From Amoebophrya sp. A120 (Eukaryota > Protista > Dinoflagellata), in contig CAJINV010000001.1 of assembly GCA_905178155.1 (NCBI GenBank), positions 6,419,860 through 6,483,859 of the forward strand: 64,000 nucleotides of DNA, written 5' to 3'. Positions 11,020 through 63,632 of the stretch are shown in pieces; position 1 is the stretch's first letter, and each line of letters begins with the position of its first letter. Made by a program: the position numbers and the translations under genes. The notes below the pieces were generated by a model, which saw only the letters and a list, made by a program, of their open reading frames with translations, was not told where the DNA came from and did no database searches.

Positions 11020-14000
11020 GCACAAAGCGATATCAAGATGGTGGAAGGAGCTGCACTACCGTTCCAGCAGCAAGACCCTTCGCTGGTGGATCCGGAGTCA
11101 GGCACGATCTCCCCTGCTTTGACACACAATTTCGATGACCTCGTCCGTTTGATTGAGCTCGCAAACAAAAACTACAAGGTTCGCACCCAATCGCTGGATG
11201 CGCAGGCCGCCCGGGACTACCAGCTCGATTTGGACCAAAGGGGATGGAAGGTTCTGACTGTAGTGTTAGTGTACGATTTCGCGAAGAGTTCTGTAGTATC
11301 TGAAAAGCAAGTGCCATTGGTCATCATCACGAAACAATCTTCTGCTTCTTTTGTGTCTCGATGCAATGCAACAAGTACTTACGTGGCTATGGGTATGGCT
11401 ACTCGCATGATCTTCGTTGCTTCGTCTTCACACCAGGTCCTCATACCCATTGGCACAGACGAGTATGGCTTAGTTGCTCATAGCCCGAACAAAAGTCTCA
11501 TCGTTCTTGCGTTCGCCGGATCCTGTGGGCAGACCGATTGGGAGACGAATCTGCACTGCCGTGCGACCTACTCTGAGCGGCACCGCGGAGACGTTCACAC
11601 TGGGTATCTAGCACGGTACGACGCACTACGAGATCAGCTGCTTCAAGTGCTCGCCTCGCTGCAAGGAGCTGTCACGCAAGCCACGAAAATTTTGGTCACC
11701 GGTCACTCCTGTGGCGGAGCGGTCGCGCAGCTGGCACTGGGCGAAGTCGTAAGAAAGACGATACATAGCTATGTCTATTGCAGCAGCAGAATGAATTTGT
11801 GCATCCCTTAATGCGAAAAGCAAAGGTAGACATGGAAACTGCAGGGCCTTGTGGTGAGTGCTTGTTTTTGTACACCTGGAATAAATGATGTAACTAAAAT
11901 ACTGCAGGTGTCTCTCTGCGCCAGCTCGTGGTTTGGTCGAGAATGGAGCAACGTGCTGCAGCCGAAAGTTTTTGGCTACTTTCTGTCATCTCCAATGGCG
12001 GTGACCTTCGCTACTGGTGCCTACGAATACCTGAACGCGATCGTCGGCGAGAAGAACATGGCGTCACAATTTCCGGAGGGAGACCTGGTGAAATGTTTTT
12101 TGTTTGTGTTTCAAGAGCCACGAAGATATCGAAGATTATATGGAACAGATTCAGATACAGATGTAGGAAAATAATTTGGCTTTGGTTTTGGAGGTGAGCG
12201 TGTGTGTGTCTTTGACTTTGACAGTGAAATTGTACGAAGGAAAGTAGCGAAAAATCTCTTCAGGTCGCCGCCACGGGCTGGGACGCAACGATTCAGGGCC
12301 TGCTTCGTAAACTTTCTCAGACGAAGGAAACCGACGCGGCGGCCATGGATCTCTTTGAGCAGTTGCAGGGGATCACGTGGGTGCAGGAGCTGCAGTATTA
12401 CCGCCCCCTGGGCCGGTTTCTCGTCCAAACCGTCTCCGGCGGGATGGTCTTGCAAAAAGACTTCGGTAATGGGGCAAGTGCGTCAATGATGTCCGCAACG
12501 CCGCCAAGTTCTAGCGTCGCTGCAGCAGGGATGGGCAACGAAGACAGCAATAAAGCTGCTACGGAGCAGCCACTTGATCCGGATGACCTCTACGTGTGGG
12601 ACACGTTTCGGCAGGCTCTTGCCGACTGCGGACTAGCTGCGCATCTTGGCGGCCGCAACAGCGAGCGCGAGTTTGTCCGGTGGATCACCGAACCGCCTTC
12701 GGTCAGTATCGTGAGAAAAATGTGTTACAGTTACACAGTCTCATGCAAAACAAGCAAGACAGACAACCTCTGTCATGCAGAAAACGCTTGCCAGCGTCAT
12801 TTCATTCGTGTTTTCCCTTCTAGTCTGCGCATTACAAGTTGTCTCTCTCATGCAGAGAAATTTGTGTTGCTGAATTCACTACAAATGTGTAACTGTAACA
12901 CTTTTTTCTTGTGATAGTCAGTCTGCTGGAGAAGGGGAACCGGTTGTGGAGTGACTGGAACGCGAAAACGGAAGAACGTGCGGAAAAATTACCGCCGATG
13001 CCAGCAACGGTCTTCGCCGAAGCGGGTGCATCTTCATCGACTTCCACGCCGTCCCGAGTGGAAGTTGGCGGAGGTCCTCGCCGTCTTCTCGCGTTTCAAA
13101 GTCCGATGTTGCAGGTGCCGCCAGTTGTAGCGCCAGTAGTAGGTGCTGCTGCCGCTGCTGTGGCACCCTCTCCCCTGCGCAGCATGATGTTCGTGCCTCA
13201 ACAGGCACAACTGCCCGCAGCGGCATCGCCTTGGAACGGCGCAACAGCAGCTCAACAGCTACAGCAACTACAATACCAGCAGCCTGCCGCACCTGCGATC
13301 CCAATATCGGCGGGATCGCTTGGCAATACAATCAGACCAGTTGGAGTTAGTGCCCTAGTAGGGTCTCAAGTTCCCGGAGCTGCCTCCACATCAGCATCAG
13401 CCTCAGAATCTGCGCCAAATCAACATGTTGCACAACACCAGCAGCCGCATCCGATAGCCGCTCCCGGACCACCTGCAGGAGCGCAGCCCGTAGCTCCTAC
13501 CCCGTTTCAGCAGAGCGGACCTGCTCCTCAAGCTCACCCGTCATTTATGACGACCAGGCCGCACGCCATGGGACGAGTCGAGCTCGCAGCTCCTACTTTG
13601 CACATGCCCTCGCAGCTACATGAATCACTCCCACAACCACAGGCACAGAACCAACCTCAAGCAGTCGCATTCCCGCAGCACCCCGGGCTGACGAAACCGC
13701 AGATACAACCCCCGGAGGTGAAAAAGGCGAAACTTCGCAAGTTCGTCTTCGTGGATCCAGCGACGGCGAACGAGGACACGAAGGGAACCACCGTCACGAC
13801 AACCAGCGAAGAAAGAAACGGAATAAACGGAACAACAGTACCGCAAGACCCCGACGCTGGCCTCGTCGAGCAACCGGCTGCTCTCGCACCGGAGCCACAC
13901 GCTCCGCCTGTTTTGTTTGCGCCCGAAGCTGGTGGGACTGCTGGTATGTCTGCAACAACAGGGCCTTCTTCCGCATTATCAGCCGCGGAGGCTTACCGCC

Positions 14001-14464
14001 AGCAACTAGCAGCGGTAGTTGCAGCGCCCGCACGATCACCTGGGGGAGGTCCTCCGAACGTCGGAGCAGTGTCATCAAGTCCCGCTGAAGCCGCGGCCAG
14101 TATTAAGCAGGCCTTTCTTGCGTCGTTCGCGAAGCCTGCCTACGTACCACCACTACAAGGACTGCAGGTAGTTCGAGCTTTTTCTTTTCGTTTCTTCTTT
14201 GCGTTTTCGGATTTGTTGAGTCGGTATGCGCCGTTCCCGCCGCTCTAGGATGTAGATGTCCGGACTTGATGCGCTTGCATCTTCCCGATCCCTGACCAGT
14301 ATTGCGCAATTTGTTGTATATTATGTTGCCCACTTTTCATCTACTACTGCGCTTCTCAGTTGCCGTCTACGATCGCGCCGAATGTTGGAAAGGTGCAAGC
14401 GATGCTTCCTACATTTCGCGAGAAATTGCAGGCAAACCAGCGCTACTTCGCTTCGCCAACGTAG
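11020..14464 (+). CDS. Class-3 (fungal-type) lipase-domain protein with long Pro/Gln/Ala-rich C-terminus; 5' start uncertain
   Basis: IVLAFAGS, VHTGY, VTGHSCGGAVAQL (GxSxG); introns ~11251-11436, ~11746-11907, 12088-12263, non-canonical 12707-12921, 14168-14359; last exon 14360-14464. Confidence 0.8.
12707..12916. mobile_element. IR introner (non-canonical intron) in lipase gene; TSD GTCAG
   Basis: Left TATCGTGAGAAAAATGTGTTACAGTTACACA vs right revcomp TATCACAAGAAAAAAGTGTTACAGTTACACA; GTCAG at 12702-12706 and 12917-12921; removal joins PPSV-SLLEK in frame. Confidence 0.92.
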
Positions 14465-15590
14465 CAATCCAATTCGGCGGTAGAGAAGATTTCTTGTAGG
14501 ATGCTTTCTTCTAACAACGATGGATGACGGATGACGCTGAATGAAACCTGAAGAAAGACAAAAAGAAAAACACGGTAAGCATTTAGAGAAAAAGAAATTC
14601 GCCAAAAACGAGGACACTTGCTTCGTGCTCTTCTTGCACCGTTAGCGAAAAACACGTTTCCAGTTTCTCGCCCGTTTCTGGCGATTCGAGAATTGAAGTA
14701 TGAAATACAAAAAAATCGCATCTCCACGATGGTTCAGTATCGAGTTCGTTGCACATGCGCCACTTCGTTCCTCCGCATGGATTTTCTGGCTTGCACTGCT
14801 AAGTTAGATAGTACTAGTTTCTAGATGCCGTTTGTGATCGTGAAAATGTTGTGTGATCCTGCATTCAGACATCATCCAGGTGAGGCTGTGTCTTCGTTTC
14901 GTTCACGCTTTCGTTCGCAAATTTGTCAACAAAAACCGAGCTGCCCATGTTTTATTCGTCCATCCGTTCCTGATGATGTTGTCTTGAAGAAAACGTTCCG
15001 GCAGTCCTCGGTCATCCGTCGTTCGTCCTCTCCAGTAGGATCGCATTGTATTTTTTGTAGATGATCCTACGAAGAAACCTGACCTCAACACACTTGAGCA
15101 AGTATCGACACGTTCTTGTTCAACATTTTGACAAAAAAACGAAAAAGCTGACATACGCGCTCTATTTTCGCCCTGGAACAAACGAGAGATTCAATATTTT
15201 GTACGCGCACACATTATCTCCAACCTCTTTCTTTTCATCCATTTTCACAACAGCTCCTGTTCTGCCTGTGTTTCGAATAAGTAGCGATCTGTACTAAGAA
15301 AACTACATTAAAGCAAACCAGTAGTACCAACGCCAACCTCGTCGGAACAAGTAGTTTTCATTTCATTTCAACCTTGGTCGATTACGGGACTTCCCCCTTA
15401 CCTATAAGCGTTGATGTTCCTCAACTAGTTAGCCATGCTCTGGTCAGTGTGGAGAACACGAGCCACTCCTCCCCTTGTTGGGGATGGGGACACCGACACC
15501 TCCAACTCTACTTCTTGACTCATCCTTTTCCTTTCACCCCCGAGCCCGACCCCCTCTATTTGAATAAAGTTTCCCACACTCCACGTCAAC

Positions 15591-18500
15591 ATGTTCGAGT
15601 CGGTGGTCGACGGGCTGCTCCAGACGTACCTGGCCCCGTACGTGGAGGGGCTGAACTCCGAGACGCTGCGGATCGGAATTTTCAGTGGGCAGATCGAGCT
15701 CAAGGCCTTGAAGGTCCGCAAGAACTTTTTTCAGCTGATCGGGGTGGACAGCCTGCGCGTCATCAATGGCGAGATCTCCAGCATTCGGATCGAGCTCCCC
15801 AGCTGGCGCGAGCTCACGTCCGGACAGATCAAGATTTTGGTCAGCGGCGTCAAGGTGGCGCTCCGGGCGCTGCACGGGTCCACCGAAACCACCCTGGAGG
15901 AGGACGTCGAGGCGCTCCGGCAGTCGCGGAAGCAAACCATTGAGGCCCGGGAGCAAATGCTTCTGAAAGAGTACGAGCAGCGGCAGCTGCGGGGGCAGGA
16001 CGGGGAGAACACCGGGGAGAGCCTGTCGTTCTTCGCGAAGGTTGGGCGACGCCTGTTGGATAATCTGTTGATCGAGGTCACCGACCTGAGCTTCACGTTC
16101 ATCGACACAGTGCGGCGCGTGGACATCGGCGCGGATCTCCCGAGTCTCCTCGTCCGCTCCACGAACGAAAAATTCGAAGTGTTAGAGCCTGGGGCGGGAG
16201 GTATGTCTACTTGGTTGATGAATGGTTCATCTCAGTCTTCTTTTTCGAATGCTGAGTGAGATGCTTTGTTTTCTTAGTACTTCATGATCTTTGCGTCTAC
16301 TCATGTCCGCCTGAAAATAAAAAACAAAGTGAATCAACTTTCTGAAAAAAAACAAAATTTCACCAGGCGACGATGCTGCCGAAGCCACGACCACAAGTCC
16401 GCTGTTCAAACTTCTGGAAGTCAATGGCCTTGCCCTGTGGTTTACGGATGCCTCGCAGCGCTCTAGCGAAAAAATCAACGAACTGCGCGACGAATTGGAG
16501 AAGCCCGAGGAAAAACAGTACATGCTGAAGCCCTGCCGCTTAGCCCTGAAGCTTGCCCACGAGCCCGCCAAGGGCATGCTCCGGCTGCTCATCGACTTCA
16601 CGGGCGCAAGAAAACACAATCCAGAAGCGGAGAGGAATAAGAAGGCGGGGCTGATGGGAAAGCTGATGGCAAAGGCTGGCAATGCTCTAGGTACAACTAT
16701 TGCGACAGGGTCTCAGGGGGAGAAAATTTTTGGCGACCATGCGGACGACGACGAGGAGGATAGCGATCTGTATCAGGAAAACGGTCTGTCGATGACGCGA
16801 TCCCAATTCGTGGCGATCATGCGTATGGTGACAAAAAACACCCGAGATGCGGCGAAGGTGCAGGACGCTCTGACACCCCCGGAGGTGCTGGAGAAATTCC
16901 CGCTTGCGCACCACAGGTACGCGCAGGAGTACATGTTCTTGTATGGCACGAAGCTCATGCGGGAGTACAAACTTCCCCCGAATTTGCGACGAGTCATCAC
17001 CAGAAACGCGCATCGGTCGCTGAGAAAGGAAGACGCTACTTCGACGGCCCCGACCGACGCCGGACTGAACGAAGCCGCCGCCGCCGCGCAGGACAACGCC
17101 GCGTTTCAAGATGCTCTGTCTTCCTCGGAAAATGAAGAAGAGGAAGACGTCAACGAGCTGGACGATAGCGCCGCGATTGAGGAAAAACTAGCCTTGTTCG
17201 AGGATGTGATGAGCGCTTACCACATCGCAAAATGGCGAGCTGCGATCAGGCAAGCTGTGATCAAAACGAAGCAGATCGTCGAGAAATCGTCATCCGCCGC
17301 CGCGTCTGCCCGAGAAAAGGAAGAGCAGAAGAATCAGAGCTGGTGGGGGTGGTTTACGGGAAAGACGAAAGAGCGCGGCTCGCAGGCCGGGGTTGCACTC
17401 GAAACAGAAGAGCAGTGGCGGAAGCGGATCGCCGAGCAGGATAAATTAGCGGAGGAAGTGTTGCAAAACTTGCACAAGGAAGTGGAAACCGTGGCCGAAG
17501 TGGAGCTGCCGAGCCGGATTGTGGTCGGTTTCCAGTGCGCACAGTTTAGCGCGGTCCTGACGGAAGATTTGCCGAGCAAGCTGCTACAGCGGAACAAGCA
17601 TTTGTCGACCAAGTCGCGCGATCTGCTCCGCGGCAACTTCACCGGGGCGTCTTTCATGCTCGGGCTGAACACGAAGCTGGACTGCCGCGGCAACGATGGG
17701 ACGGAGCTGATCATCATGGTCGGTGGCGAAGCCATAGACGCCACGCACTACGGGAGGCCGGTGATTCGCACCAGAAGAAAAAAACAGACCAAGCGCCATC
17801 ACGGGGGCGGCCTGCGGACGCAGAAAGCGCGGGACTTCTCCACCCAAAAGTTGTCGCAAAAGCTGTCCGGGTACTCCAGCCCACAACTTCAGGGCCCTCC
17901 GTCGGCGACAGCTCCACACCAGAACAATTTGGCGTCTCAGGACACAGCCTTCTCTGACGACGAATACGACGTCTGGGGCGACCACGACCTGCAGACCCCG
18001 GGGCGCTCTACCCCCGAAGAAATCCCGTCCCCACGCACGGGGCAGCTGAAACCGATGGTCATGAAAAAGCGGGCGAACAAGTACATCCTGGATGATTTGG
18101 AGGCCGCCATGATCACCGCCTTTGCGACGCAGGAGAGCGACATGCAGTCGCTTCGGGAGGACTTGAAGCAGCGGGGCAGGGAAGCGGGTACGTTCATCCT
18201 GTTCAACAAACTCGGCACCGACCGCAACGTCATGGGCCTGTCCTACGAAGCCGTCCCGGTGGGCTTCTTTCTTCGCCCGCTGATAGTGCCAAGCATCGTT
18301 TCTTTTTTCGACGTCAATGACGAAATCGTTCAGGTGCTGGGCCCGGATCCAGCACACTTGGCGGAACAGCAGCAGCATAAGGAACAACAGGATAACGACC
18401 TTACGGACCACGTCAATTCCGGAACCACTTCTGCTGGAGTAGCATCAAGCTCGACTCCTCTACTGCCCTCAGGTGCGCTGAAGAAAACTTCTCCGCTCGG

Positions 18501-21500
18501 GGCGGCTGCAATTTCTATGTCCGAAAGCGGTGCTGCTGCCTCGTCCAGCAGCACGAGGCAAACCCGAAACGAGCACGCAGAGCTGATGGAGCAACGGCTC
18601 GACACGATCGATTACTACCTGAATTACGCCACCCAGGCGTACGCGAACAACAAGGAGGAGGTGTTGAAGCGCATTCCGGACGCGATGGACTTGTACTTCT
18701 CACTGAAATCCCCAACCGTTGAGTTCGCGACCGAAAATCGTGCGACCGCGTCCTTCAAACTGGGCAACATGCTGTTCTTCAGCCCCGTCCCTTTTGCCAT
18801 GGACAAGGCGCAGTTCCAGGTGTTCATGAACGACACCAGCTTGAAAGTGACCACGCCCCGGAAGGAACGGCTCTACGTGCTGAAGCCCGTCCCGATTTCG
18901 GCGACCATCCAGACCGACATGAGCGTCAACACTTTGGTCAACGTCAGCGTCGGCCGGTGCGAGCTCCACGCGGCGCCGCAGGCCGTATTGATCTTGATGG
19001 CCCTCCCGAACATGATCACGTCTGCGGTTTTAGACTATTCCGCCCCGGTGGCGGCTTCGGCCGGAGCAGTAAAGCCGAACAGCAGACCGCTTGCGATCGA
19101 ATCCTCCGCGGTCTCCTCTGGGATGGGTTCCAACGCCACGACCGCAGCCGCAGTTGCGCGGGGCGAGAAGCTGGGGACGATTGATGAAGGTGGGAGAACA
19201 AAAGCTGCTCCGCGGCGCGCGACAGCTGCGGCACCCGCGCTCGCCGGCTTAGTTTACAACAAGGTACGGGAGCGCTTCACCGAGAATATCAGAAATGAAG
19301 ATAGGGACGCTGCTGGTAACAAGCGACTCCGCGTGCACCGGGCAGTCTCCACCGCAACGCCGGACGAGCTGGAGGGCAGAGCCAGTGACGTTGTGGATCA
19401 GCTGGACGAGTTCGATCGCATGCCCTCGGAGGCTACGGAGATGGTTGCCGACCAGGAGGGTCTGGTGGAAGAACCCGATGCCGCTCCAGAGATGAACACG
19501 ATGGTTACGGTCGGTGTGGAGAGGATCCTCGTTACGCTGGGCGACACTGTGATCCCCGTGTTGCAGACCCAAATCCGCCTTCCGGACCTCTTATACCACG
19601 CAAAGGGACTCTCCTATTCGGTTTTGACGGAGAAGGGATTGTTTATGGACGTCAGTATGTACAACACGCGAAACGGGTGCTGGGAGCCCTTGCTGGAACC
19701 CTTCTGCTTCAACGAACTGAGTTTGAAAGTGGAAAACAAGATGGTTCTCACCTTATCCGGCACACACCGACCCTTCTACTTGAACTTCTCACCTACGTCG
19801 GTCGCAAAGCTTTCCTGGTTCGCACCCTGGTTCCTCGGGGAGGTCTTCGGCACGTCTCCTGCAGCCACCGAGGAGGCCCGCCTGCAAAAGTTGCGCTCGC
19901 AGTTGTCCGGGCTGGGACCATCGAAAGGGTCCATGTTCCAGGACGTTCTGATGCTTGAGCAGCCCAGTGCCGCCTTGGAGGCCAAGAAGTCGATGGGCCT
20001 GGGCTCTATCCATTCGGATAACTCCTCCCGGGACACGCGAGATGGCGATAGCAGAATGACCGGCGGTTTTGATTCGGTGATTTCAAACGGAGACGAGAGT
20101 GACGGGCTCGGAAGTAGTCGCTTCCAGTCGCTTTCCTCTAACACAACGTCAAATGCAGCAGCTAGCCTCGAGCCCGGCTCGACCGTGCCCGCTTCGTCGA
20201 CAACCGGTGTTGATTCGATCCTCGCCTCTGTTGCCGGCGGCAACAACGCCGCACAGCACGTCCGCTTCGATGTGAAGGCTTTAGAGGACCACGACGAACT
20301 CACGAGCGAGGAGGAACAGCAGCAGAAAACCCCGATGCACTTGTATCAGTCCCTGATCTTGTCCTTGCACCCAACCTCCTACCCGGCGTTGGTCCGCTCG
20401 CCCTACCAGGACATCGAGGACGCCTCCCTGCTGAGCTGGAACACGACCCGATTTCGCTGCATCAACGTGCTGCCCTTCACCGTCGCTGTGCGCTTCTTCC
20501 CCGCGGCTGACACCGCCGTGTCCACCGATCGGTCGGATCAAGACAGGTCCAGCTCGCGGCCGAGCGGATATTCGGGCTCAAGAACATCGAAGAAGCACGA
20601 TCGCAATCAGACCATGTACAAGACGCAGTTTGGCCAGATGTCTACGCGTCGGGGAGGCGAGACCACGCCCGGAGTTGGTGGCCAGACCACGGTGCGTGGC
20701 GGGGCTTTTGACCTGGACATAGATGCGCTGATTGAACTCCTGCCGCCGCGGATGCCGGGAGAGGCAGAAACCCTGCTGATTTCCCCGGTTCGCGGGCCTC
20801 GGGACTGGGCCGCACTGGACCCGGGTATTTTGCCGACGTTGGCGGAGAGCCTGGACTGTCGGTTGGTGAAAGCTGCCGAGAATACCGTGAAGGTTCAGCA
20901 CTGGCGAAACCACATGGACCACGCCGCGACGGCGTTGCTGACGCCCACCGGCGCAGTGACACCGGGGACAAAAGAGGTAGACGGCAGCGAGCCCGGCACT
21001 CCGAAACCCGGTGCCGTTGCACCCACCGGAAGCGACGAAACAAGCGGCACGGAGGGCGGTCTTTCCGCACGCCACCAGCTCAAAGCGCAGCGCGCGGCAG
21101 GCGTGTCGCCCGAGGCGCTCGGCAAAGCCATCGAGGCCGCTAGGAGGCAGCAAGACACAGCTCCCGACGGAAATAAAGTAGAACAAAACAAAAACAAACG
21201 CGTAGGGGGTGTTATGGCGCGCCGTCATCGTTTGTCCGTCTACCAGCAGGGTGGCATGGAATTTGGCAACAGCGTCGAGCTGAAAAACATTTGCTTCGTT
21301 GCCCGCATGCTCGCACCAAAAGCGTCCCACAAGGTGATGGTGCTCTCCAGTTCCGTAACGCTGCACAACCATTTGTCGGTGCCCTGCCGCATGAAAATGA
21401 ACGGGGAGAACGCACAGCTGAACAGTTTAGTCAGTAAATGCTGCTTCCTGGACGAAGCGGCGGCGCTCGAGCGCAACACGTACCCGCGGAAGAGCTTCTA

Positions 21501-24500
21501 CGAAAAGCACGTGCAGATGGACCTGCAGAAGCAGGAGAAGGACTGCCCCGTGAAAAAGTACCTCAACCCCGAGGAATACCTGTCCGTGTGTTCCAACGAA
21601 GTCCAGTTTCGCATTTTCGACTTCGCCTGGTCCCCGATCGTCGACCTGGCCCGCAAGCCGCAACAGAACGAAAGCCGCTGGTGCGTCGGCGTTTTCAACC
21701 TGCCCAAATCCAGCAAGGACGCGAAACTGAACGCCGAGAGCCCGAGTTTCAACTTTCTGCTCGCCCGCGAAGAAATTTTGTCCGGCCCGCCAATGAACAA
21801 GCCGATCCGTGAGATCCACATGCTCCCGGCGCTGGTCTTCGAGAACGCGCTGCCCTGCCGCCTGGCGATCGTGATCGAGGAGGTCCGGATTCGCGGCGGC
21901 AAGGACCGATATAAACCGGAGGACCTGGACGAGGACGGAAATCCAATAAAGCAGAAGCGGGTGCGGGTGGAGACGTTTGTGGACCCTTTGTCCGTCTGGC
22001 ACTGTTACGAAATCGATCCGCGCTGCTACGTGCAGCTGCATGTGCGCGTGTATGAGGGCGAGAATGCGAAGCAGAAGAACCCGAAGATAAAGCTCCCCCC
22101 GTTTTCCCCCTACGTCGAAGAGTCGCGCCGCCGTCAGCACTTGGCCGCACAGAAGCGCGCCAAGGCGGAAGCATCCGCGGGGAACGAGCGGGCGAAAGCG
22201 GGCGTGTATGGCGCAGACCAACAGGCGTCGGAGGACGCGAAAAAGACGGAAGAGAGCATCAACCGACACGTCGAGGTCGCGTTCGAGCACGCCGGCATGA
22301 GCCCCTTCCAGGCCGTCGCGAGGCTGGGGCTGCGGACGAAAGTTTTCTGCCCGATTTGGATGGTCAACCGGACGGATCTGAAACTTCCGATAGACGCCTT
22401 TCCGTCCTTTGGCGGGAACACGTTGCTGGGAAACGTTATATTGGGTGAGGACGAGAAAGCAGAAGACGACCATGAGAAGCAGCTCCTGCACACGCTCGAC
22501 ATCGCGGGCCGCTCGGTCGAGCTCCCGGCGGAATACTGTGTGCTGGACCGGGGGGTGAATCTCTGCGTGCAGGCACACACCTTCACCGTCATGGGCACGC
22601 TCTGCCAGATGTTTCACCTTCTCCCCCGCCTGATCTTCCATAACAAGAGCGAGCAGGCGACCTTTGAAATCCTCCAAGTGCCAACAAAAGAGCTGCCTCA
22701 GATGCTCCGGGTGAAGGAAGAGAAGCGCGCAGAGGAGCTCGTGGCCCAGATGGAGAACAAGCTGGCAAAGCGATCCGTGTTAGTCAACGAGCGCAACACT
22801 TTCACCCTGGCCCCCGGCGGCATTTACGTCCCGGCCCAAGACCTTGTGGCCGTGCGCTTTCGGGTCCAGGGAATGAAGCACTGGAGCAGTTTGGTCGTCC
22901 TGGGCGACGACCAGGCCGGGGATTTTCCGTTTGTGCTCGAGGGTTCCACGATCGCGACGGTCGAAATTTGCCCTGACCGCGGGCGGTTGGGGGTGAATTT
23001 TTCCACCAATAGCAGTTATCTCGTCGAGAATTACACGTATGACTACTACATGGTGATCAACAAGTGCGTGAAGGCCGAGCCACGGAAGGAGGTGGACGCC
23101 TTTTCCGACGAGGACCAGCTGTACTTCGCCGAGTTTCTCCCGGGCGAGCAGGAACAACTCGACCAGGAGCAGCCACCTGCTATCACGAACTACGGCTGGA
23201 CCGATCCGTTTTTCGAGGAAAATTTGCAGCTTCCAGAAGACGAGTTCAACGCCACCATGTCGGATCGGCAGCGACCACCGAGCTCGGTGCTGCTCAACAC
23301 CGACGACGCGCAGCACACGCCGGGCCCGGTTGACCAGCGCTGGCTGGTGGACATCGAAATTCGGGCGCGCGAACGGAACGTGCTGATCGACCGCATGCAG
23401 ATCTACGCGTACGAGGCAGCCACCTATCACATGAAGCCAGTGAGTCTGGAAAAACCGGAGGTGGTTGTTGCGAATAACAAGGCTGGCAAAAAGAACATAA
23501 AAGACAATATCCTCAAGGCCAAAAAAGGCTCGAAGCAGGCTCCTAAAGTGGAACGCAAGTCCGACCCGCTGATGCTTACAGTGACGAGAATAGGAGCCTC
23601 CAACGTGCTCCGGCTAGATCGCGACGAGGCGCACCACTTCGGCAGCCTCGCCTCGCGCAAACAGGAGGCCCAGAAATTTGAAGCGCGGGTGAATTTGAAC
23701 CGCGTTGGGCTCAGCTTCATCTCCGAGGAGCGGAAAGAAGAATTTTTGTACATGCAGCTGGATTTGCTGCGCGCGGTGTACCTGCAGGAGACGGACAAGA
23801 TGACCACGCAACTGATCATCTCCGACATTCAGTGCGACTGCCAGTTTCAGAGCCGCAAACGGGGGACCCTGTTCGATCCGAAGAGCAACGTGGCGCCGAA
23901 CACGCGGACGCTACTCTGGGACTCCATCGACACGAAGCTCCCCGTGGTCTTCGGAAACCGCGGGAGCAGCACGGGCACCGTGCCCTTCCTCGAAGTTTTG
24001 ATCACCCGGACCGCGATTGCGAGCCGCGATTTGGTCATCCCCGTGCTGGAGATCAATGTGGACGACATGGAAATCTCCATCGACGACGAAATTCTGCTCG
24101 GCTTCCAAGAGTACATGAACATCGACTTCTACGGCGAGCAAATGGGCGGCGACCTGACCGCAACAGGAGCCTCCTCAACGGAGCTGAGTCGAAGCCGCGG
24201 CGACGACGAATCTGGGGGTGGCTTCACCAGTGTCAGTGGGGGCGTCACGCCACTGCAGCAGCGAAGCATGTTGACGCGCGGCGACGCGAGCAGAAGCGGG
24301 GTCACTATGATGTACACGGAGAAGCACAGCGCAGACACGATCTTGGCACCCGTAAAAAAGTTGCCCCCACAGTTTCAAAAGTTCATTACTCTTCAGAGTG
24401 CTGAGCATGATAAAGACGAGAATTCTAGTACCGTTGACCTCGCAGCCGCAGGGCTCACGAAGCAAAAGCGCAAGACCAACCGCCAGCTGGTGTCCGCAGC

Positions 24501-27500: not shown

Positions 27501-28393
27501 TTTTCCCCCAGAAACTGCAGGTCATTTCAAAGAACCCTGTCCGGGAATCCGCAGCAGAGGCGACGCTCACCGGCAGAGGGCCCTTCATGCTGCACCCAGG
27601 CACTGGCACGTCGTCCTCCAGCGCCACTTCGTCTGCTGCCACAAATAAGAAGAAAAAGAGCCCGCACTTCGACTTTGCACCCAATGCAAGGATAAACGAC
27701 CAGGATGAGGTTGGCGGTGTGCGCGACATCGAGGACGGTGGTGCAACTACATCTAGCAGCTCCAGTCGCGCCGGTCAGCAACCACCTCCGAAGGGTTCTC
27801 CCCGTGCTGGCGGAAATAATAACGGTCACCAGCAGATAGTCGCGACGAGCAACAAGACGATCGAGCCACCGGACCACACGGTTCTGCGAGAAATGCTGAA
27901 AGTGCTCCGCGGCGAGACGCAGGAGTGGAAGCGGGTTAAAGATTCCCTAGCCATGTTTCATCGGGCGCAGCTGTATCTGGAGCTCCTCCTCCCTCACAGC
28001 AGGTCTTTGACCACCGAAGACAGCGGCAGCGTGATGACCAGCAGAATCGTGGAGTGCTACGAGGTCGAGCGGAACAAAGTGTTCGAGTGGGGCCCGGCGT
28101 TCCTGCCCACCGACGGCGACAGCCGGTGGAAGTGGATGTCGCTACAGATGGAAAAGCACCCTTTTCTCGACCCCACTCTAACCAGGTCGCAGTGCATCCG
28201 AGCGCGCAGGCCTCCCTTCGTCTTTTCCAAACTGTGGAAGCCCAAGGGACCGTGGCGAATCGTAAAAGATCCCAAGTTGACGGACCCGGAGGGCTGGACG
28301 TACGCAGTAAACTGGGGCAATAAGGTCTGGACCAAGGACGAAGGTATCGTCGACTACGTGCGGAGGAGAAAGTGGATACGTGAATTTCTGTAA
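15591..28393 (+). CDS. VPS13: VPS13-family bridge-like lipid transfer protein (~3,960 aa) with C-terminal DysF/peroxin-like domain; exons 15591-16200, 16367-25503, 25700-26089, 26361-26421, 26709-28393
   Basis: Chorein-N start MFESVVDGLLQTYLAPYVEGLNSETLRIGIFSGQIEL; YNTRNGCWEPLLEP; ATG2_C-like IVTKPIEGAQEDGVAGFFTGLGQG; terminal EGWTYAVNW...DYVRRRKWIR; all joins in frame. Confidence 0.9.
26090..26355. mobile_element. IR introner in VPS13; TSD TGGTC; same family as 53618-53884
   Basis: TGTAAAAATGTCTGGGTGTGGAAG / CTTCCAGACCCAGACACTTTTGCA inverted repeat; TGGTC at 26085-26089 and 26356-26360; removal gives AALV-PAATAG. Confidence 0.92.
26422..26703. mobile_element. IR introner in VPS13; TSD AGACG
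   Basis: TATCCTGTGTAAAAACGT vs right revcomp TATCCTGAGTAAAAACGT; AGACG at 26417-26421 and 26704-26708; removal gives FEED-DDVYSL in frame with ORF 26732. Confidence 0.92.
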
Positions 28394-53078: not shown

Positions 53079-54190
53079 ATGCTGCTCCAGTCGGGCGCCT
53101 CTAAAGAGGCACTGCGCACGCTGATCGTGGGAGGCCGGGGTGGTATCGGGACGGCGTATGGAAAGTTCTTCAACCCTGCGAACACGGTTGTCACCGCGTC
53201 AACACCGAAAAAAGTCGAGGAGCTGAAGGCCAAAAAGTTTGCCAACGCGCTTCAGTTGGACTTCAACCAAGAAGCACACTTCAAGAACTTGTCAACGGAG
53301 CTGAAAAACATGGATTTCGTTCCCGACCTTGTCATCAACTGCACGGGCGTACTCGGCCTGCCACACACGGACCCAGCGAAAGCGGAAAAAGGCGAGATCG
53401 TTCGGCCAGAATCTTCCGTGAAAAAGATAACGCCCGACATTCTGCAGAGGACGTTTCTCACCAACGTCTTTGCCAACGCATTGTTGCTGCGGGAACTCGC
53501 CTCGGGCATTTGGAGCAAAGCGCCGAAGGACCACCCGCTTCTTTTCGCGTCCTACTCCGCCCGGGTGGGCAGTATTGCGGCAAACGAATTGGGTGGGTGG
53601 TACAGTTACCGGGCCTCTATCAAATGCAAATATGTCTGGGTCTGGAAGAATGCGCGATTTGTCATGCTGCTTTTCCATGACCCATGGCATGGGGTTTGGA
53701 ATGCAGGACCTAGCATGACAGTTTCTGTGCGATCTCTCTCATGCCTATCCTGCATGAGAAAGTCCCTCCCGGCTTGGTCAAAACTGAACGACTTTTGGTA
53801 ATCATGCAACACAGATTTTTGCATGCTGCAGATTTAGCATGAAAAGTTGCAATGTTCCAGACCCAGACATTTTTACATTTGATAGCCTCGAAAGCGGCGC
53901 AAAACCAGTTGATCAAGACATCCAGCTTAGAGTTCAAGCGGTCACACCCGAAAGCGTGCTTGCTTGTCGTGCACCCGGGGACCGTGGAGACGACTTTGAG
54001 CACGCCTTTTGTTGGAAACGCGAAGAAGCAAACGCTCCAGTCAGAGGTCCTGGATGACGTGGAGAAGCTGTCGGGCTACTTTACACCCGACGTCGCCGTG
54101 CAACTGATGTGGAATAATGTTTTGAGCAAGGTCGGGCCGGAAGACACAGGGAAATTTCTCGACTACGCGGGCCAAGAAATTCCGTGGTAG
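53079..54190 (+). CDS. Short-chain dehydrogenase/reductase (C-factor/CsgA-like); exons 53079-53617 and 53890-54190
   Basis: GGRGGIG, INCTG, SARVGSI, GGWYSYRA|SKAA (YxxxK split by introner), VHPGTVET, GKFLDYAGQEIPW. Confidence 0.92.
53618..53884. mobile_element. IR introner inside the SDR catalytic YxxxK motif; TSD GCCTC
   Basis: TATCAAATGCAAATATGTCTGGGTCTGGAA vs right revcomp TATCAAATGTAAAAATGTCTGGGTCTGGAA; GCCTC at 53613-53617 and 53885-53889. Confidence 0.95.
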
Positions 54191-55014: not shown

Positions 55015-58000
55015 ATGGCTTCGAGACCGAGCACGATGTCACCTCCCGGCAAGCCGGGCGACCGCCCGACTTCTTCCTCGTCTCTACCGCCGGCAGAGGA
55101 CGAACCCGCACCGCTGTCCAACTTTGCGCAATGGGTGCAGCGTGTCATTCTCGCGCTCGGGGTAACCGTTGGTGAAAAGGAGTTGCAGTTGGCCGGCATG
55201 GTGGAAGAAGCGACCACAGATACGGTTTTTGGATCGCTTTCCCTCGTTTTCATGATTCTGCAGCAAAACATTACAGCCTGGACAGACGTTAGAAAAGAGG
55301 CGGGTGATTTTAAAGTGATTTTATAGAGAGGGGGCGCGTTAGGTCTTTGATTTTCCAAGCTCGCCGGCCTTGCCTGCACTAGGCGCGTGGTGGGTATTTG
55401 CCTGAGTAGGCTAAGGAATTGCGGCGGGCACTGCATTGTGTCGGCGCTGTTTGTCCGGTGGATTTCGAAAAAAAACACGTCGCAAAAACATCGCGAGCAA
55501 CACGAAAAGAACGCGCTTTCAACACCACTGCGCTTTTCTTCTTTCGCTTATGAATTTGCTTCGTCGTTTTTGTGCGTGGATGTTGCAAAAGGCCAGCCAA
55601 AAAAAAACACCGAGCGCCATCGTGAATAATTTTAAACCGCATGCTACGGCGTCATCTTAAAAAAGCCGCTGTTTTGCGGGTCCAAAAAGTTGCACAAAAG
55701 TTGCTGGTGACTTTACAACAAAAAAAGATGCTTTGGCTCTCCATTTTGGAGCCAAAATATCGACCATAGCGTGCGGGTTGCCGGGACGCAGCCCGTAAAG
55801 TCACCGCAAAGTCACCCTAAAGTCACCGCTAAAGTCACCAACATCCGGACGGCAAAAATTCCAAACCCAATCCGCATTGCAAATTGCCGACTTGGCCGAG
55901 TAGAATTCGCATCGAAAAAGTGCCAATCTCGGTGGTAGTAGGGACATCGGCAAGACTTAGCGGCGTCAGTTTTGGTCTCGTGTGCCGAAAAAAGCAGCGC
56001 AAAAATTGAGAGCGCTCGCCGCGTTGCAAATTGCGCATTTTGCCTTCAGAATTTTTAAAAATTATGCCTCAAATGCCGATGGTATGGTGCTTGTTTTTTG
56101 GCCCTCCTTTGTCTCCTCTTGTTGGTATCTTCTCCTTTGCTCTCAGGGACAAAAGTAGAGAAATCTTCTGAAGGCCATGAGGCGTCTTTTTTTCGGCACC
56201 ATGCTTGAGAGTATAGCCCTAAAATCACTGGAAAATCACCTATAGAGAGTCTAACGGGTGTCCAAGCTCTAAGCAAAACAGCGACACGCGCGGCAGTCTC
56301 TGTCTGTACTACCTGGAAAATGTCCTGTACGCGCACCCAAATGCGTTGGCTTTATACTTCACGCCCGACATGGTCCCTATTCTGTTTTCCACCAGTGGCG
56401 ACGGCGGTGGAGATGACCTGCGTGCAGGGGTGCTACTCTGGCGGCTGCTGAAGTACAAGTACGAGTCCTCCGGGCAGACCTACCCGTGCGAATTGGAGGC
56501 GTACAAGCTTCTGCGCATTTTGGAAAAGAGGAACAGCACGAAAGTGGTTCGAAAATTTTCGCCCTCCTGCATCCGGTACATTCTGGTGAAAATTTGGGCC
56601 GACATTGAGCCATCCCGGCGCGTCGTGGAAAAATTATCGGACCGCCAGCGGCGGGAAGACGAGATGAATGGGAAGTTCAATAGCCCGGTAAACACCAAAT
56701 CTAAGCCTCAGCTCGCTGACGACCACCCGGCGGACGACTTGTCGTTCGTGAGGCCAAAGAAACAAAACACGACGGCGGTCACGAACCCCACGACCGTCAT
56801 GCTGGACGTCTGCATGCACTGGTTGGCGGAGACGGAGGAGCCGCCGGAGAGCAAAGCGCCGCTGCTGGAGCTGCTTCGATCGGTCGTCAAGGGCCAGAGC
56901 GCGGTGGAAATGACGTCCCAGCTCCTGACCCGGTTCTTCGCGCTGCTTTCCTCAACCGCGGTCACGGGGTCTTTGTCGGACGACCTGCAGTTTTCGCTCG
57001 CATTGGTCGACTGGGCGGAGATCGGGGCGATTTTACCCGCTCTGTTGCAGCCGTTTGGGGAGGACAAACTGGTCGCGATTTGGACGTTCCTCTGCACCAT
57101 GCACCCCGTGAAACTCCCCGAGCCACTGCAGATCAACCCGTCCTGGCACTTCTTCAAGGCGGAACAGCCATTAATTCGCTTCCAGAAGCTGCTCGCGCAG
57201 CACTTCTTCCAGCGGAGCTACCGTTTAGGTGGGTCAGCCTTGGCGGTGCTGCTGTCGTTAGCCACGACGGAACAAACCGGTGTCGTCGCCGTGCGTTTGT
57301 TGGACGAGCTTGGCGTCGCAGGAAACTACGAAACGTTTCTCCGGGCGTTGCGCGAGAAAGCGGCAATCCATTTGGAGGTTTTGGATGACGACGACGAGGA
57401 GGAGAAGGAGGAAGGGGGAAATTTTTATGCAGGTGGCTCGTCCATGTTTAAGAAAGGACCCGCCGCACTGATCCAGCAGATTGACGTCGCCTTGGGTGAA
57501 GAACAACCAGCACCGCCAGCAGCAAACACATCAAGCTTTAGACCGCGAAGCGAAAGCGAGCTGAATTTGCTCGGGCGAAAAATTCATCCATCCGATATAA
57601 TCGCCGGTGGGGGCGCCGCAACATCATCTTCAGCCGTTTTTGGAAATCATGAGCACCGGCCAAACAAGCTTTCGGCACTTTTCAGCGAGTGCTTTCAGTC
57701 CGTGCCGAACGCGGCGAGAAACACGTTCTTGCTGCAGAAACAGAATCAACACCTGCTCGCCGAAAAGCTGCGGTCTGCGAACCAGAACAAACTGAAGCAG
57801 TTGAACCAGCACGCGGTCGACCGCGGCACGCTGGAATTGAACGAGCTTTTTCGGGAAAATCTAGCGTTGACGCAGCAGATTTCCTGGAAACAGATGGAGA
57901 TCGCAAATGAAAACTTGAAGTCTTGGGAGAAACTGCAGAAGGGCATCGAGGAGGAGGAGAGGCAGAACGCCGCCTCGCCGAAAAAGCGGAAGCCCGCACC

Positions 58001-59108: not shown

Positions 59109-59261
59109 TTGTGGAAGTGCGAAGGCAAACTCGTTGTGCTACGAGTTTGGCCTCTGAAGGAATATCAATATGAATATTTCAATCGATAAGTTGTACAGCG
59201 CTATAATAAAATATGTTGACAGTTCCAGGTTGACAGTCGCTGGAACATGACGAAAACCTTA

Positions 59262-59519
59262 GAGCGAGGTAACAAATGTGCCGTTAACTCGCGCCCGCGA
59301 GTTAAGCCTCCGGCCGGCCGGCCGGGCGGTTAGCTCGCAGTTTGAGCCGGTCTCAACTTCTTAACCGACCCAATTCTCTCGGTTTGAGACCGAAGACTCT
59401 GAACCGGTCTCAACTTCTCTCGGTTTGAGACCGGCTCAAACCGCGAGCTAACCGCCCGGCCGGCCGGCCGGAGGCTTAACTCGCGGGCGCGAGTTAACGG
59501 CACATTTGTTACCTCACTC
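59262..59519. mobile_element. MITE, PIF/Harbinger (Tourist)-like, ~95-bp near-perfect TIRs, TTA TSD
   Basis: GAGCGAGGTAACAAATGTGCCGTTAACTCGCGCCC... mirrored at the right end; TTA at 59259-59261 and 59520-59522. Confidence 0.88.
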
Positions 59520-60319
59520 TTACAATAAAGGGCATTTCAATTCAAGTATGCGGGCCTCGCGATTGCAAGGCAGCGTGGTGACCCTGAGCGTCGATAGTGT
59601 TTTCTCAAAGACATTCGTGTCAAAGCACGCCGCTTTCTTCACAATGTAACTAAACGCGTAAGTACGAAAGTTCTTTCTCTTTGAAAAAAGTCTTTTTTAG
59701 TCTTTTTCTCGGTGACGGTGTTTCTCAGCTGCACAAAAGATCGAGACCATCGGTATTCCCGCAGAACAGTTCGTGAAAGTCAAAGCTTTTCGTCCCCCCG
59801 TCTGCGGTACGAGCGACGGTAAATCAGTTATCGCTCAGCGCTCCATTGCTGTCGGTCCTCCACTACTCGTTTCTATTCGGTTTTCTGTACGCTTCGACAA
59901 GATGTCAAAAATCGGCTGTATTTACGCGTCACTGAAATCGGAATGTACTAGATGAAGATGATTAGGAATAACAGGTGCAGGTCGGTTAGCATGGACTTGG
60001 ACATGACTTTCGGTTAATACGTTTCGCATACTTGTTGTTCATTCTGCGTGTGCTCCGGACCCGGAAGATGATATTGATAGTGATACAACGCATAACATTA
60101 ACAACTGCCATCCGTCCTCCACAACCACTCAGGATTCTTTCATTTTTTGTAGTCCTCCGTCTTAATCATTCGCAACATACGTTTATTTTTGCAAGTTTCT
60201 TTTTTCAATTGAATTTCAAGCAACTCCGCACCGAACTCCAAGACCAAGTCGAATTCATTTCACACATTATTACTTTCCTTCTGACTCGTTAAAATTTCGC
60301 GGCTTCGGATTCTTTTTGC

Positions 60320-63300
60320 ATGGGGGGCACAGCCTCTTCCCCGGCTGACCAGCCGCGTTTGAAGAGTTCTACTGGCACGAAGAATCAGCACCCGGGCTAT
60401 TCTGGCCTGGAAGCGGTCTCCGGCGACTACAGCGAGGAGTTTCTCAAGCGACCCAAGGGGAGAAACGAGCAACTCTTCACAAAGTCGATTTCTTCATTTG
60501 CGCAAGAGGAAAGGTACGACCCAAACATCGGCGCCGGGAAAGTCGCCAGCTTTCAGGACGAACGAAACCCGGCATCCGACAACCTCGACGCCTTTCCGTA
60601 CGAGCCGGAGGAGCGTTTTGACTCGGAGTACGAGGCTTCACAGTTTCTAGCGCCCGCGTCGTGGTCGTACAGCACCAAGCAACAAAGCACAAAGGGAGGA
60701 CAGAGTCAGCGATCCGGCAGCGCACCGGCCTCGGGGCGCCAGGCCGCTGCAACAGGGTTCGTGCCCTCTGCTCCACGGCAGCCCTCGGAGCGCACGCGGT
60801 CTAAAGGAACCACTCTCGCTTCATCCGCTTCGCAGCCACCTGTTTCTTCGCAGCAGCAGAGCAGCACGCGCAGTGGCATTCCTAGTGGAACTACAGAGCA
60901 GCCAGCGTCGACTTCTTTCTCACACAGTGTTGGGATAGCTGCAGTACCAGTTGTTGTATCTGTTCCTTTCCAGCAGCCTCTAGGTGGATCTGTACATCAG
61001 CAGCAACCACTAGCGAGTGGAAAGCCAGCCGCGGCTCCGGCGTCCTTCCGGAGCCGTTCTAGCGAAGTTAAGCGCGTCGAGCAGGCTTCATCTTACACCT
61101 CCGAACAGAAGAACGCGAAACTCTCGGTGACTGAGAGCAGTGAGAAGGCCGGCACTCCTGCTCCAAGAAGTCGATCGAGCGGGACCACAAGCTCAACACC
61201 AGCACCGGCGATTGTTCCATCCGCGCAGCCGCAGCGGTCTGTCGTCCAAGTAGCAGGAGAGCCAGCAGGCCCGTCCAGCGCGAAGCCCGCTGCTCCGGCG
61301 TCGTTTCGCACGAGTTTGATTGCAGGGGGAGGTACTAGTACTACCGCGGCACAGGTGGAGCAACAGGACAACAAGATGAATTCCGACGGGGCATTCCTCA
61401 CCGACGAGGACGCGTATGCTAGGATGCTAAATGCGCGTCAGTCGAATCCGGATGCGCCCCAGTCTCTCGTCCGCGCTCCGTCCGCCCGAAGCCGGGGTAG
61501 CAAAAGCAAAACATCCGTCGGAATGAACAACGTCGGCTTCGCCCAAGATCAGTTGAGCATGTCCCAAATGGAAGCTTTTAATGAAGAAGACGCGTACGCA
61601 CTGATGTTGAATTCCCGCCAGTCTGATCCCGGTGAGGCTCCGCAGTCCGCTGTCCATAGCGTCCAAAATGTTGGCGCGCCACAGTCAAACGCTGGGCGGG
61701 CAAGCAAAAACAAGGCATCGAAAAAACAAGCAACCATAGCGTCAGAGTTTGCACCACAAGACCCGAGCTCTGCAGGAGCTGTTCCGCCGAGTGCTGCTTT
61801 TCCGTTGTCCAACAAGACGAATAAGCAGTCAGTGTTTTTTTCGGCTAAAAACGAGGCGACGCTATCCATGTGGGCGGACAACCCTCCGTCGCTCAACCAG
61901 CTTGGCCCGGGCGGTCAGGCCGTAGCGCTCACGAGCGAGGAGGTGGATGCGATGATGCAAAGTGCTCGGGAAGAAAACTCGAAAAGCATGTTCTACAGCA
62001 GAGTGCCAGCGCCGGTGTCTATGAAAGGCAAAAATCAGGACCAGCCAGGCAGTGCCGACTACAATGCAGCAGCTGCCGTACCGGTACCAATGAGCAAGAA
62101 TTCAGTCGGGCTCGGCGGACCTGGGTCGGTGACCTCGCAGATCAAGGGTGCCGCCGCAATGCCTTCCTCTGGCGGCTTTCGCGGCGTCAGCACGAAGCCA
62201 ACCAGTCAAGCGCCGACGAGCGGGAAAGGGACAAAGAGCTTGCGAAGCGGCAATAAAATGCCAAACTTGATCCCCGATGACGCCACAAATCTGCAGAATA
62301 TGGGCTTCGACGAGGCCTCCAAGCACGATTCCTTCGACCAGAATTCGTATCTCAGCATGCAGGGAGCTTTTGCGAGGGCAGACTCGAAGCAAAGCAACAA
62401 AGGAGGCAAAAACATGGCCACGAAAGCCGGCCCGTCGAGCACGAAGTCCAACGTTTCCAATCCCGCCTACACTACGCAGAAGCAGACGCGGTTCATGAGC
62501 GACTCCAGTCTGGAATCAGCCCGACTAATCCCCGCAGGAGCCGTATCCCACGGAAAAACTGTCTCAGTCTCAACCTTTTGCAGACTCAGAAAGAACACGT
62601 CTGTCATGCGTCATATAGCAAACAACAGGAACAGAATAGAAAACACATGTAACATCAAAGACTAAGACTCCCTTTCTTGCATGTCCAGGGGGACCACAAA
62701 AAAAACTATCTCAATATCAATTAGGAAATGGCACAGCACATTCTGAGACTCGTGAGACAGCTTTGTCATCTTTCGATAAGTCGCCACTGGAGGGCTGAGC
62801 AGTGGCGGTCCTGGGAGCGTTATCGGGGCTCCGATCATGTCCTCGTACGGCTATCTCGGTATGCCGGTCAACCGTAATTCCAGGGGGATGCCGACGCTCA
62901 CGCCGGGAGGTGGCTATCCCGGGGGCATGATGACGTACAGCTACCAAGGACAGCGAAGGATTGGTGCCCGGGACGACGAGGTGCCGGAGCTGTGCTGTGA
63001 CTGCTGTGCCTTTTTCTGCGAAACCCGGGCAGATAGACGGGAGGTCCGCAGGCTACAGAGGCACGGAACGATGGAATCAGCTTACGTAAACCTCTCTCAG
63101 CTTTCATTTTTGTTTCCCTGTTCTTCTCGTTAGAATCTTATTAGGAAGTAGATTCTTGTTGCCTTTTCGAACTCGAGGTTTGGTTTCACTCACTTGAGAA
63201 GAAGTAGATTAAGGTGTGTGAAGATGCTCCAGACAAGTAGAAGTACGAGCTGAAACATAAATCATAATCATGTGATATTTTTTCTCAAACTCCTGCGACA

Positions 63301-63632
63301 AATCGAAATCACTATCACAGGCCGAGCCGACGAGCGAGCACACGGGTATGTGGCACTCGCAGTTTTTCAACGCACAGGCGGCGGATTTGAAGGAGTTGCG
63401 GCGGCTCGAGGAGTATGGTGTCATGATGTCACGCGTGTACGAGGGCGAGGACTATAACGAATTCAACCGGTACCACAATTCCTGCTACCGGTGCATCCTG
63501 GTGGCTCCCTGGCCAATGATCGTCCAGCTCATTTGTTGTTTCGTGGTCGCTATCGCGGTGCAGATAAGAATGGGACAGATGGGCAAACCAGACTACGGGT
63601 TTTGCGGTTGGGATTTTGCCGAATACAATTGA
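60320..63632 (+). CDS. Low-complexity Ser/Ala/Gln-rich protein with N-terminal MG (possible myristoylation), Cys cluster and C-terminal TM helix; exons 60320-62543, 62784-63085, 63321-63632
   Basis: 781-aa ORF joined in frame to ORFs 62837 and 63348; TM-like ILVAPWPMIVQLICCFVVAIAV. Confidence 0.7.
62544..62778. mobile_element. Degenerate IR introner; TSD AGCCG/AGTCG
   Basis: TATC...AACTGTCTCAGTCTCA vs TGAGACTCGTGAGACAGCT...GATA; removal joins IPAGA-ATGGLSS. Confidence 0.7.

Follow-up and report, generated by a model that had tools for sequence, protein, structure and literature searches.

Introns in the dinoflagellate Amoebophrya are largely non-canonical. In strains A25 and A120, more than 60% of the introns validated by RNA sequencing (RNA-seq) belong to this class (Farhat et al. 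2021, PMC7789003). In A120, 29,850 non-canonical introns are repeated introner elements, which make up 17% of the assembly. The inverted repeats of these introners consist of TAT, seven less-conserved nucleotides (nt) and then at least three A, and direct repeats of 3–5 nt lie over the borders (5 bp in the example of Fig. S19 of that report). The legend of its Fig. 3 gives the position of the intron border as unknown, and Fig. S23 places the inverted repeats 1–5 nt from the splice sites. Here, eight such elements (E1 to E8) and one insert of a second kind (L9) are described from a 64,000-nt stretch of Amoebophrya sp. A120, referred to as the window (contig CAJINV010000001.1, positions 6,419,860 to 6,483,859 of the forward strand). 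A first-pass annotation of the window, made from the letters alone, had grouped the eight elements as introners with non-canonical removal.

The introners analysed by Farhat et al. (2021, PMC7789003) are 40–1000 nt long and form many strain-specific families with tens of thousands of copies; no transposase is given for them in the sections of the report cited here. A later survey lists A120 families of approximately 150–305 bp, classed as 'TIR DNA, superfamily unknown', with mostly non-canonical splice sites and 4–5-bp duplications (Gozashti et al. 2025, PMC12130899). The borders in its table are a mixture of gt, at and others, as expected from arbitrary placement within a 5-bp repeat. In the literature searched, no subsequent study was found to establish the register or the enzyme for Amoebophrya introners; papers outside that literature may exist.

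The eight elements of the window look like the same thing as the introners already published for Amoebophrya (Farhat et al. 2021, PMC7789003). Inverted repeats, the terminal motif, direct repeats and repetition are found in them, as is non-GT–AG removal at E5–E8. The features in common with the A120 introners are inverted repeats with TAT and an A-run, 5-bp direct repeats, RNA-validated non-GT–AG borders and lengths inside the 40–1000-nt range. The identity proposed in the first-pass annotation, an Amoebophrya-type introner with inverted and direct repeats, agrees with the published A120 signature at 15 of 16 termini, in the 5-bp repeats and in the non-GT–AG joints. Nothing essential is different from the published description as far as it is cited here; the cut register is narrowed to (0,+5) or (−1,+4), counted from the base of the stem. 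In addition to this register, the analysis contributes a case, L9, that separates a ruler from a duplication-defined cut, an apparent independence of orientation and an enriched internal word.

In mechanism, the closest parallel comes from Euglena, which belongs to a lineage unrelated to that of the window organism. The nonconventional introns of Euglena follow the pattern 5'-N3-CDG...CH'G-N5-6|R, established by knock-in tests, with strict spacer lengths (PMC12501133). Like the window elements, they have non-GT–AG borders, ends that pair and a suspected origin from transposable elements of the miniature inverted-repeat kind (MITEs). The spacing between their borders and the paired motif is fixed as well, at 3 nt on the 5' side and 5–6 nt on the 3' side, and the machinery is thought to be distinct from the spliceosome (PMC12501133). 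They differ in that a CAG/CTG pair follows three free nucleotides, whereas the window elements have a 5' spacer of 0–1 nt and a stem of 20–45 bp. The Euglena code C[AGT]G is absent from positions 4–6 of the eight 5' ends, which read CGT, CAA, CCT, CAC, GCA, GCA, CAA and CCC. Nor do the window elements consistently have the purine that the Euglena code demands where the exon resumes past the cut.

MITE-type introners with canonical splicing were reportedly described by Huff and colleagues in 2016. Those of Micromonas and Aureococcus bring GT...AG with them or recruit it, and they are spliceosomal introns of the ordinary kind (PMC7789003). What they have in common with the window elements is that they are non-autonomous transposons, with inverted repeats and a target duplication of fixed length, and give rise to introns throughout a genome. 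The difference lies in the borders, which are canonical GT...AG in those lineages, whereas no canonical pair occurs in any register here. In the tunicate Fritillaria and its relatives, 95% of introns escape GT/AG, with a divergent U2AF and modification of small nuclear RNA (snRNA) (PMC13326754). Most introns are therefore outside GT/AG there as well. The tunicate process is, however, assigned to the spliceosome, and no hairpin or duplication geometry is reported in the cited sections of that paper.

Inverted-repeat elements in the window

All eight elements are on the forward (+) strand. They begin with TAT[CG] and end with [CG]ATA in every case and range from 152 to 282 nt. E1 occupies 12707–12916 (210 nt, TATC...GATA ends) and is flanked by the target site duplication (TSD) GTCAG at 12702–12706 and 12917–12921. 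E2 (26090–26355, 266 nt, TSD TGGTC/TGGTC) is of the same family as E7, and a 66-nt exon separates it from E3 (26422–26703, 282 nt, TSD AGACG/AGACG). E4 (31913–32073, 161 nt, TSD CGAAA/CGAAA) is nearly palindromic and lies directly 5' of an ATG. E5 (49856–50012, 157 nt) has AGATC upstream and AGACC downstream, which match at 4/5 letters. E6 (50122–50273, 152 nt) lies in a kinase-like gene between GACGA upstream and GAAAA downstream, a 3/5 match. E7 (53618–53884, 267 nt, TSD GCCTC/GCCTC) is in a gene resembling a short-chain dehydrogenase. E8 (62544–62778, 235 nt) is degenerate and has AGCCG upstream and AGTCG downstream (4/5). The start positions and the terminal letters are those of the first-pass annotation; the end of E6 is corrected to 50273. 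Re-reading of the flanks also returns its tally of 5-bp repeats, five perfect (E1–E4 and E7) and three degenerate (E5, E8 and E6).

Inverted-repeat arms of 19–48 nt are present in seven of the eight elements. The first-pass annotation had assigned such arms to all eight; in E8, 4 bp pair at the end and a further stem of approximately 12 bp lies inside. The arms of E1 are 31 nt long and 87% complementary, and those of E7 are 37 nt long and 89% complementary. E2 and E7 are 70.8% identical over 267 nt, their full length. E4 is self-reverse-complementary at 71.5% over its own length. The elements other than E2 and E7 have in common only their ends and a short internal word. The elements have a G+C content of 38–47%, lower than that of the DNA around them.

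When TAT...ATA pairs at a spacing of 80–700 nt are sought that have a terminal inverted repeat, gaps allowed, and a flank match of at least 4/5, the scan gives six matches in the window, all among the eight elements, and none in each of 10 Markov shuffles. E6, with its 3/5 repeat, and E8, with its interrupted inverted repeat, are below this filter. The terminal motif TATSNNNNNNAAA (TAT, 7 nt, A-run), which accounts for the 15 matching termini, occurs 30 times in the window, where 9.6 ± 3.0 would be expected; none of 100 shuffles has as many. A generic scan for inverted and direct repeats without the TAT anchor mostly returns low-complexity palindromes (39.8–40.1, 44.5–44.8 and 59.3–59.5 kb), with 0–2 matches per shuffle. 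The word TCATGC, often in the form TGTCATGCA, occurs 14 times in element interiors against 0.32 expected, a 44-fold excess, and its reverse complement occurs 7 times. This word may be a subterminal protein-binding repeat. Three copies of TCATGC are also clustered at 43183–43303, where no recognisable element ends are present.

Removal of the element and 5 nt leaves a frame that is open for at least 100 amino acids (aa) on each side at seven of the eight junctions. The chance agreement of the upstream and downstream long frames is 1/3 per junction. The open lengths upstream and downstream are 159 and 442 aa at E1, 155 and 581 aa at E2, and 175 and 561 aa at E3. The exception is E4, where 48–56 aa are open upstream and the ATG directly 3' of the element opens the long downstream frame. 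E4 may be located in a 5' untranslated region rather than in a coding exon. Each element with its flanks has stops in all three forward frames, and none can be read through. The earlier claims that all elements interrupt coding exons, and that removal of the element with one TSD copy restores the frame each time, therefore stand for seven elements and are doubtful at E4, with its short upstream frame.

Exon joints and intron borders

Joints that skip the elements are present in contigs from four runs of one sample (X1–X4), which were guessed to be RNA and contain approximately 0.6 of the sequence words, against 0.95 in DNA runs. In all four runs, the joint at E5 (49854>50017) skips 162 nt, the joint at E6 (50120>50278) skips 157 nt and the joint at E7 (53612>53885) skips 272 nt, with 1, 1 and 5 ambiguous letters, respectively. 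The joint at E8 (62541>62782, 240 nt, 2 ambiguous letters) is found in run X2 alone; the other three RNA-type runs have no depth there. Each of these lengths is the element plus 5 nt. A single uniform joint per element is found in all runs that contain the joint. At E1, an RNA-type contig piece starts at 12917, one base past the element, and at E3, a piece starts at 26703, the leftmost placement that the repeat permits. In run X2, a joint of 235 nt (63085>63321) also passes over a regular GT..AG intron, at 63086–63320 (+), of the gene that contains E8.

In X1–X4, there is no depth over 45000–48169 and patchy depth elsewhere, and the listed pieces, including those of kilobase length, have 0 differing letters. 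The runs are taken as RNA of the same strain because of this depth gap, the absence of differing letters in the listed pieces and the skipped GT..AG intron. They are not taken as DNA with empty sites because the 1007-nt joint at L9 keeps 8 + 3 nt of the duplication. That the element-free form is nevertheless DNA is very unlikely. It would have to come from excision in part of the cells, comparable to the eliminated sequences of ciliates, or from a strain without the insertions. The guessed RNA label of the joint-bearing runs would allow this, and the 8 + 3 nt kept at L9 could resemble a transposon excision footprint. However, contigs of DNA run X7 carry the exon–element junctions and run from unique sequence into E1–E4 at a depth of 43–46, equal to that of the flanks; it follows that the DNA contains the elements at full copy. 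The joining runs lack approximately 3 kb of intergenic DNA and part of the words and skip the GT..AG intron, and the joints are uniform rather than a spectrum of footprints. Another strain is at odds with the identity of the listed pieces. Excision from DNA and the empty sites of another strain were both rejected on the X7 depth, the 0 differing letters and the uniform joints.

GT..AG or GC..AG borders are found in none of 6 registers for any of the eight elements. This observation had been made for the elements with perfect TSDs and extends to all eight. U12-type AT..AC ends likewise occur in no register of the eight; E4 and E6 give AT..AA at register 4. A search of the whole window against Rfam, which includes group I and II introns, gives 0 matches at gathering score.

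The least probable explanation, and one we consider barely credible, is that these are ordinary introns with nearby cryptic GT–AG sites and that the direct repeats mislead the alignment into a skipped length of element plus 5 nt. Several elements do have in-frame GT/GC..AG pairs no more than 20 nt away; at E1, for instance, the pair 12706..12917 is 3 nt shorter than the element plus 5 nt. The piece at E1, however, starts at 12917 and not at 12918, as this canonical alternative requires, and no in-frame GY..AG alternative lies within 20 nt of E4 or E8. The joints at E5, E6, E7 and E8 are ambiguous by at most 1, 1, 5 and 2 letters, and no placement within this range is GT–AG. The RNA-type contigs give non-GT–AG joints of element plus 5 nt at E5–E8, and the use of nearby canonical sites, which the first-pass annotation had named as the contrary outcome, is contradicted there by the same joints.

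Mismatched duplications had also been suggested as a means to fix the cut register, and they do narrow it. The contigs carry the upstream version of the duplication at all three mismatched elements (E5, E6 and E8). The joints leave registers 4–5 for E5 and E6 and registers 3–5 for E8. Retention of the upstream copy at these elements places the two cuts at (0,+5) or (−1,+4) relative to the stem. The intron is the element plus the downstream copy of the duplication, or the same interval moved one base to the left.

A second kind of insert

L9 is located at 55271–56272 (+) and is 1,002 nt long. It has TTAC...CTAA termini with imperfect inverted repeats of approximately 60 nt and is flanked by an 8-bp duplication, GCAAAACA, at 55263–55270 and 56273–56280. 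L9 splits a gene whose 3' part encodes a ubiquitin hydrolase. In all four RNA-type runs, the L9 joint (55269>56277) skips 1007 nt, which is 1002 + 5 and not 1002 + 8, and the skipped sequence has AT..AA ends. Removal leaves 3 nt of the second duplication copy, in frame, and the open reading frame (ORF) is open for 152 aa upstream and 943 aa downstream. In the minimum-energy fold, the outermost predicted pair of L9 is exactly 55271–56272. In this one case, the loss of 1002 + 5 nt despite an 8-bp duplication argues for a cut whose position depends on the stem rather than on the duplication.

Predicted structure and proposed mechanism of removal

Minimum-energy folds of the elements were computed with 5-nt flanks, and z scores were taken against dinucleotide shuffles. 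The terminal stem closes at the element ends or at most 2 nt from them in E1, E3, E4, E5, E6 and E7 (6/8), as well as in L9. The stem of E2 closes 7 nt inside the element. The z scores are −2.1 to −9.4 in seven of the eight elements (for example, −5.9 in E1 and −9.4 in E4).

On balance, the elements are probably MITEs in transcribed genes that leave the pre-mRNA through cuts placed by their distance from the base of a hairpin and not at sequence-defined splice sites. Structure-guided removal is likely; it is consistent with the data and not proven by them. In the proposed sequence of events, MITEs with a 5-bp duplication and no coding capacity would insert into transcribed genes, and their inverted ends would pair into a hairpin in the transcript. 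Where the cut falls would depend on the stem rather than on the TAT/ATA letters or the duplication. On the 5' side it would be at the first paired base and on the 3' side five bases after the last paired one, or one base to the left at both. With a 5-bp duplication, this geometry would restore the pre-insertion reading frame exactly. We give a slight preference, over a relaxed spliceosome, to machinery that would not read splice sites in the classical manner of U1 and U2AF and might consist of an endonuclease and a ligase. A broader proposal is offered tentatively, as possible but doubtful. According to it, the borders of any family, in any orientation and with any duplication length, would be set by a ruler from the base of the RNA hairpin, in a non-spliceosomal cut-and-ligate process convergent with the N3/N5 spacing of Euglena.

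An alternative that we regard as somewhat unlikely, and still as the main competitor, is a relaxed spliceosome that reads the conserved ends of the elements (UAUC at the 5' end; at the 3' end, a U-run approximately 10 nt before GAUA, followed by 5 nt), with the hairpin as a by-product. The ends are in fact the most conserved part of the elements, both in the TAT[CG] and [CG]ATA letters of all eight and in the A-run (T-run on the 3' arm) at all but one of the 16 termini. Nearly all spliceosomal proteins were found in A25 and A120, and the same layout of inverted and direct repeats is present in 15% of canonical A120 introns (PMC7789003). The tunicates handle 95% non-GT/AG introns by way of a changed U2AF and snRNA modification (PMC13326754). 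A relaxed spliceosome is less easily reconciled with L9, where the termini, TTAC...CTAA, are different and the cut geometry is equal. Neither of the allowed registers has a constant base at both ends of the intron, and a branch site would fall inside stems of −40 to −108 kcal/mol. U1 snRNA was, moreover, not detected by Farhat et al. in the work as cited here (2021, PMC7789003).

Several observations weigh against hairpin-measured removal, and some of them favour the relaxed spliceosome. E8 is skipped in an RNA-type contig despite a weak stem (z +0.3, outermost pair 21/222), which recognition of the TATC/GATA ends would explain no less well than structure. Among the stem mismatches, read on the sense strand, there are 10 G-U and 7 A-C pairs, which is no excess; there is thus no sign of selection for an RNA helix beyond the inverted repeat of the DNA. 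The argument from a common geometry depends on one non-TAT element, L9, which is not shown to be repeated and has no homologue in the window or in the fetched metagenome loci. As for the transcripts, X1–X4 come from a single sample and were labelled RNA by guess, and joints are seen in them at E5–E8, with piece starts alone at E1 and E3. X10 and X11, two of three raw RNA runs with the same species label, consist of 3.3 and 3.1 million reads, of which 1 and 2, respectively, fall on 12500–32400. The orientation calls for the metagenome copies described below come from a codon-usage model and not from RNA.

Copies in metagenome contigs

The elements have the features of MITEs: they are small, contain no ORF, occur in many copies and carry terminal inverted repeats and a fixed-length duplication. 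No transposase domain was found by Pfam in the 15 long ORFs of the window. A 5-bp duplication is presumably linked to an integrase-like enzyme. On the 19.9-kb stretch 12500–32400, there are 4086 contigs of DNA run X7, and their summed depth peaks in the bins that hold elements.

The 15-nt core of the E2/E7 arm is found at no fewer than 141 loci in public metagenome contigs. None of the listed loci overlaps the window beyond the element. At least 27 further copies of the E2/E7 family are complete, with both cores; the duplications among them are perfect in 23, match at 4/5 letters in three and match at 3/5 in one. When no repeat filter is applied, the 107,122 nt from the listed loci contain 70 TAT...ATA inverted-repeat elements. 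Their flanks match perfectly in 58 elements, at 4/5 letters in seven, at 3/5 in two, at 2/5 in one and at 0/5 in two.

The median pairwise identity of the 29 listed E2/E7-family copies is 0.70, and the closest pair is 0.96 identical. The arms and internal words that contain CATG are kept across these listed copies. The target sites of the 29 listed copies have no preferred letters, so they have no consensus that would supply splice signals. Strand calls were made with a codon-usage model trained on the window frames, which placed the right frame first in 5/5 held-out frames; a call with no stop and a margin of at least 8 was taken as confident. A confident call was obtained for 11 of the 29 listed copies, of which 3 are sense and 8 are antisense relative to E7. 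In locus L024, two copies lie in opposite orientation, 374 nt apart. Judged by these calls, related copies appear to be located in coding DNA in both orientations. The intact frames around antisense copies suggest that these would be removed as well.

Two or three TAT elements lie 50–100 nt apart in several of the metagenome loci (L003, L017, L024, L028, L040, L066, L074, L099, L105 and L108). Metagenome exons as short as approximately 60 nt are bounded by two hairpin introns, as is the exon between E2 and E3 in the window.

Host genes and other repeats

The long frames of the window are all on the forward strand. Among 15 long ORFs, Pfam identifies a malic enzyme, a class-3 lipase and a ubiquitin hydrolase, with weak matches for a VPS13-like giant ORF, a kinase and a short-chain dehydrogenase. 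E6 is positioned between the catalytic-loop and DFG regions of the kinase-like gene. The 34-aa exon 5' of E6 corresponds to positions 103–132 of the Pkinase profile (E 0.0045, 16.8 bits), below the curated cut-off. For the 577-aa exon 3' of E6, a protein search among 7989 candidates of 317–1010 aa gives nothing at E ≤ 0.001. The exon 5' of E7 has a weak match to adh_short (E 0.00087, 19.3 bits, with a curated cut-off of 26.6 bits).

Near the end of a 3,099-aa frame, there is a likely GT..AG intron, GTAAAT...CCTAG, at 25504–25619, and an RNA-type piece ends beside it at 25502. The stop of the same frame (25644–25646) overlaps the ATG of the next frame at 25643, an ATGA overlap. The relic of the dinoflagellate spliced leader has 0 matches in the window at up to 3 mismatches. 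The loose-end consensus of an RNA-type contig at 14262 has no match in the window.

Other fold-back sequences are also present. Just 3' of the ubiquitin-hydrolase frame, a 260-nt fold-back at 59261–59520 has arms of 96 nt that are 98% complementary. The RNA-type contigs of the ubiquitin-hydrolase gene end at 59268, at the edge of this fold-back; the stop may be the end of the transcript or a mere assembly break. Three inverted-repeat pairs at 41236–41443, 42373–42612 and 46769–47366 (arms of 90, 42 and 35 nt, respectively) are unrelated to the TAT family and lie in A+T-richer stretches without long frames. No homologues of three other fold-back elements were found among the fetched metagenome loci. 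The G+C-rich, low-complexity (GCGT/GCAC)n stretches at 44490–44880 and 39800–40100 contain many overlapping palindromes, and the former is bracketed by a 48-nt inverted repeat.

Discussion

How introns that lack splice signals are excised exactly, in their tens of thousands, is a question that concerns Amoebophrya and Euglena alike. Copies with mismatched duplications can settle the position of the cut inside the repeat, which the 2021 paper left open. Elements with other duplication lengths can separate a hairpin ruler from removal defined by the duplication. Gene finders that require GT–AG mis-model every gene of the window that carries such an element. If the borders are set by a ruler from the hairpin base, only transposons with a duplication of 5 modulo 3 (5 or 8 bp) would settle in coding exons without a frameshift.

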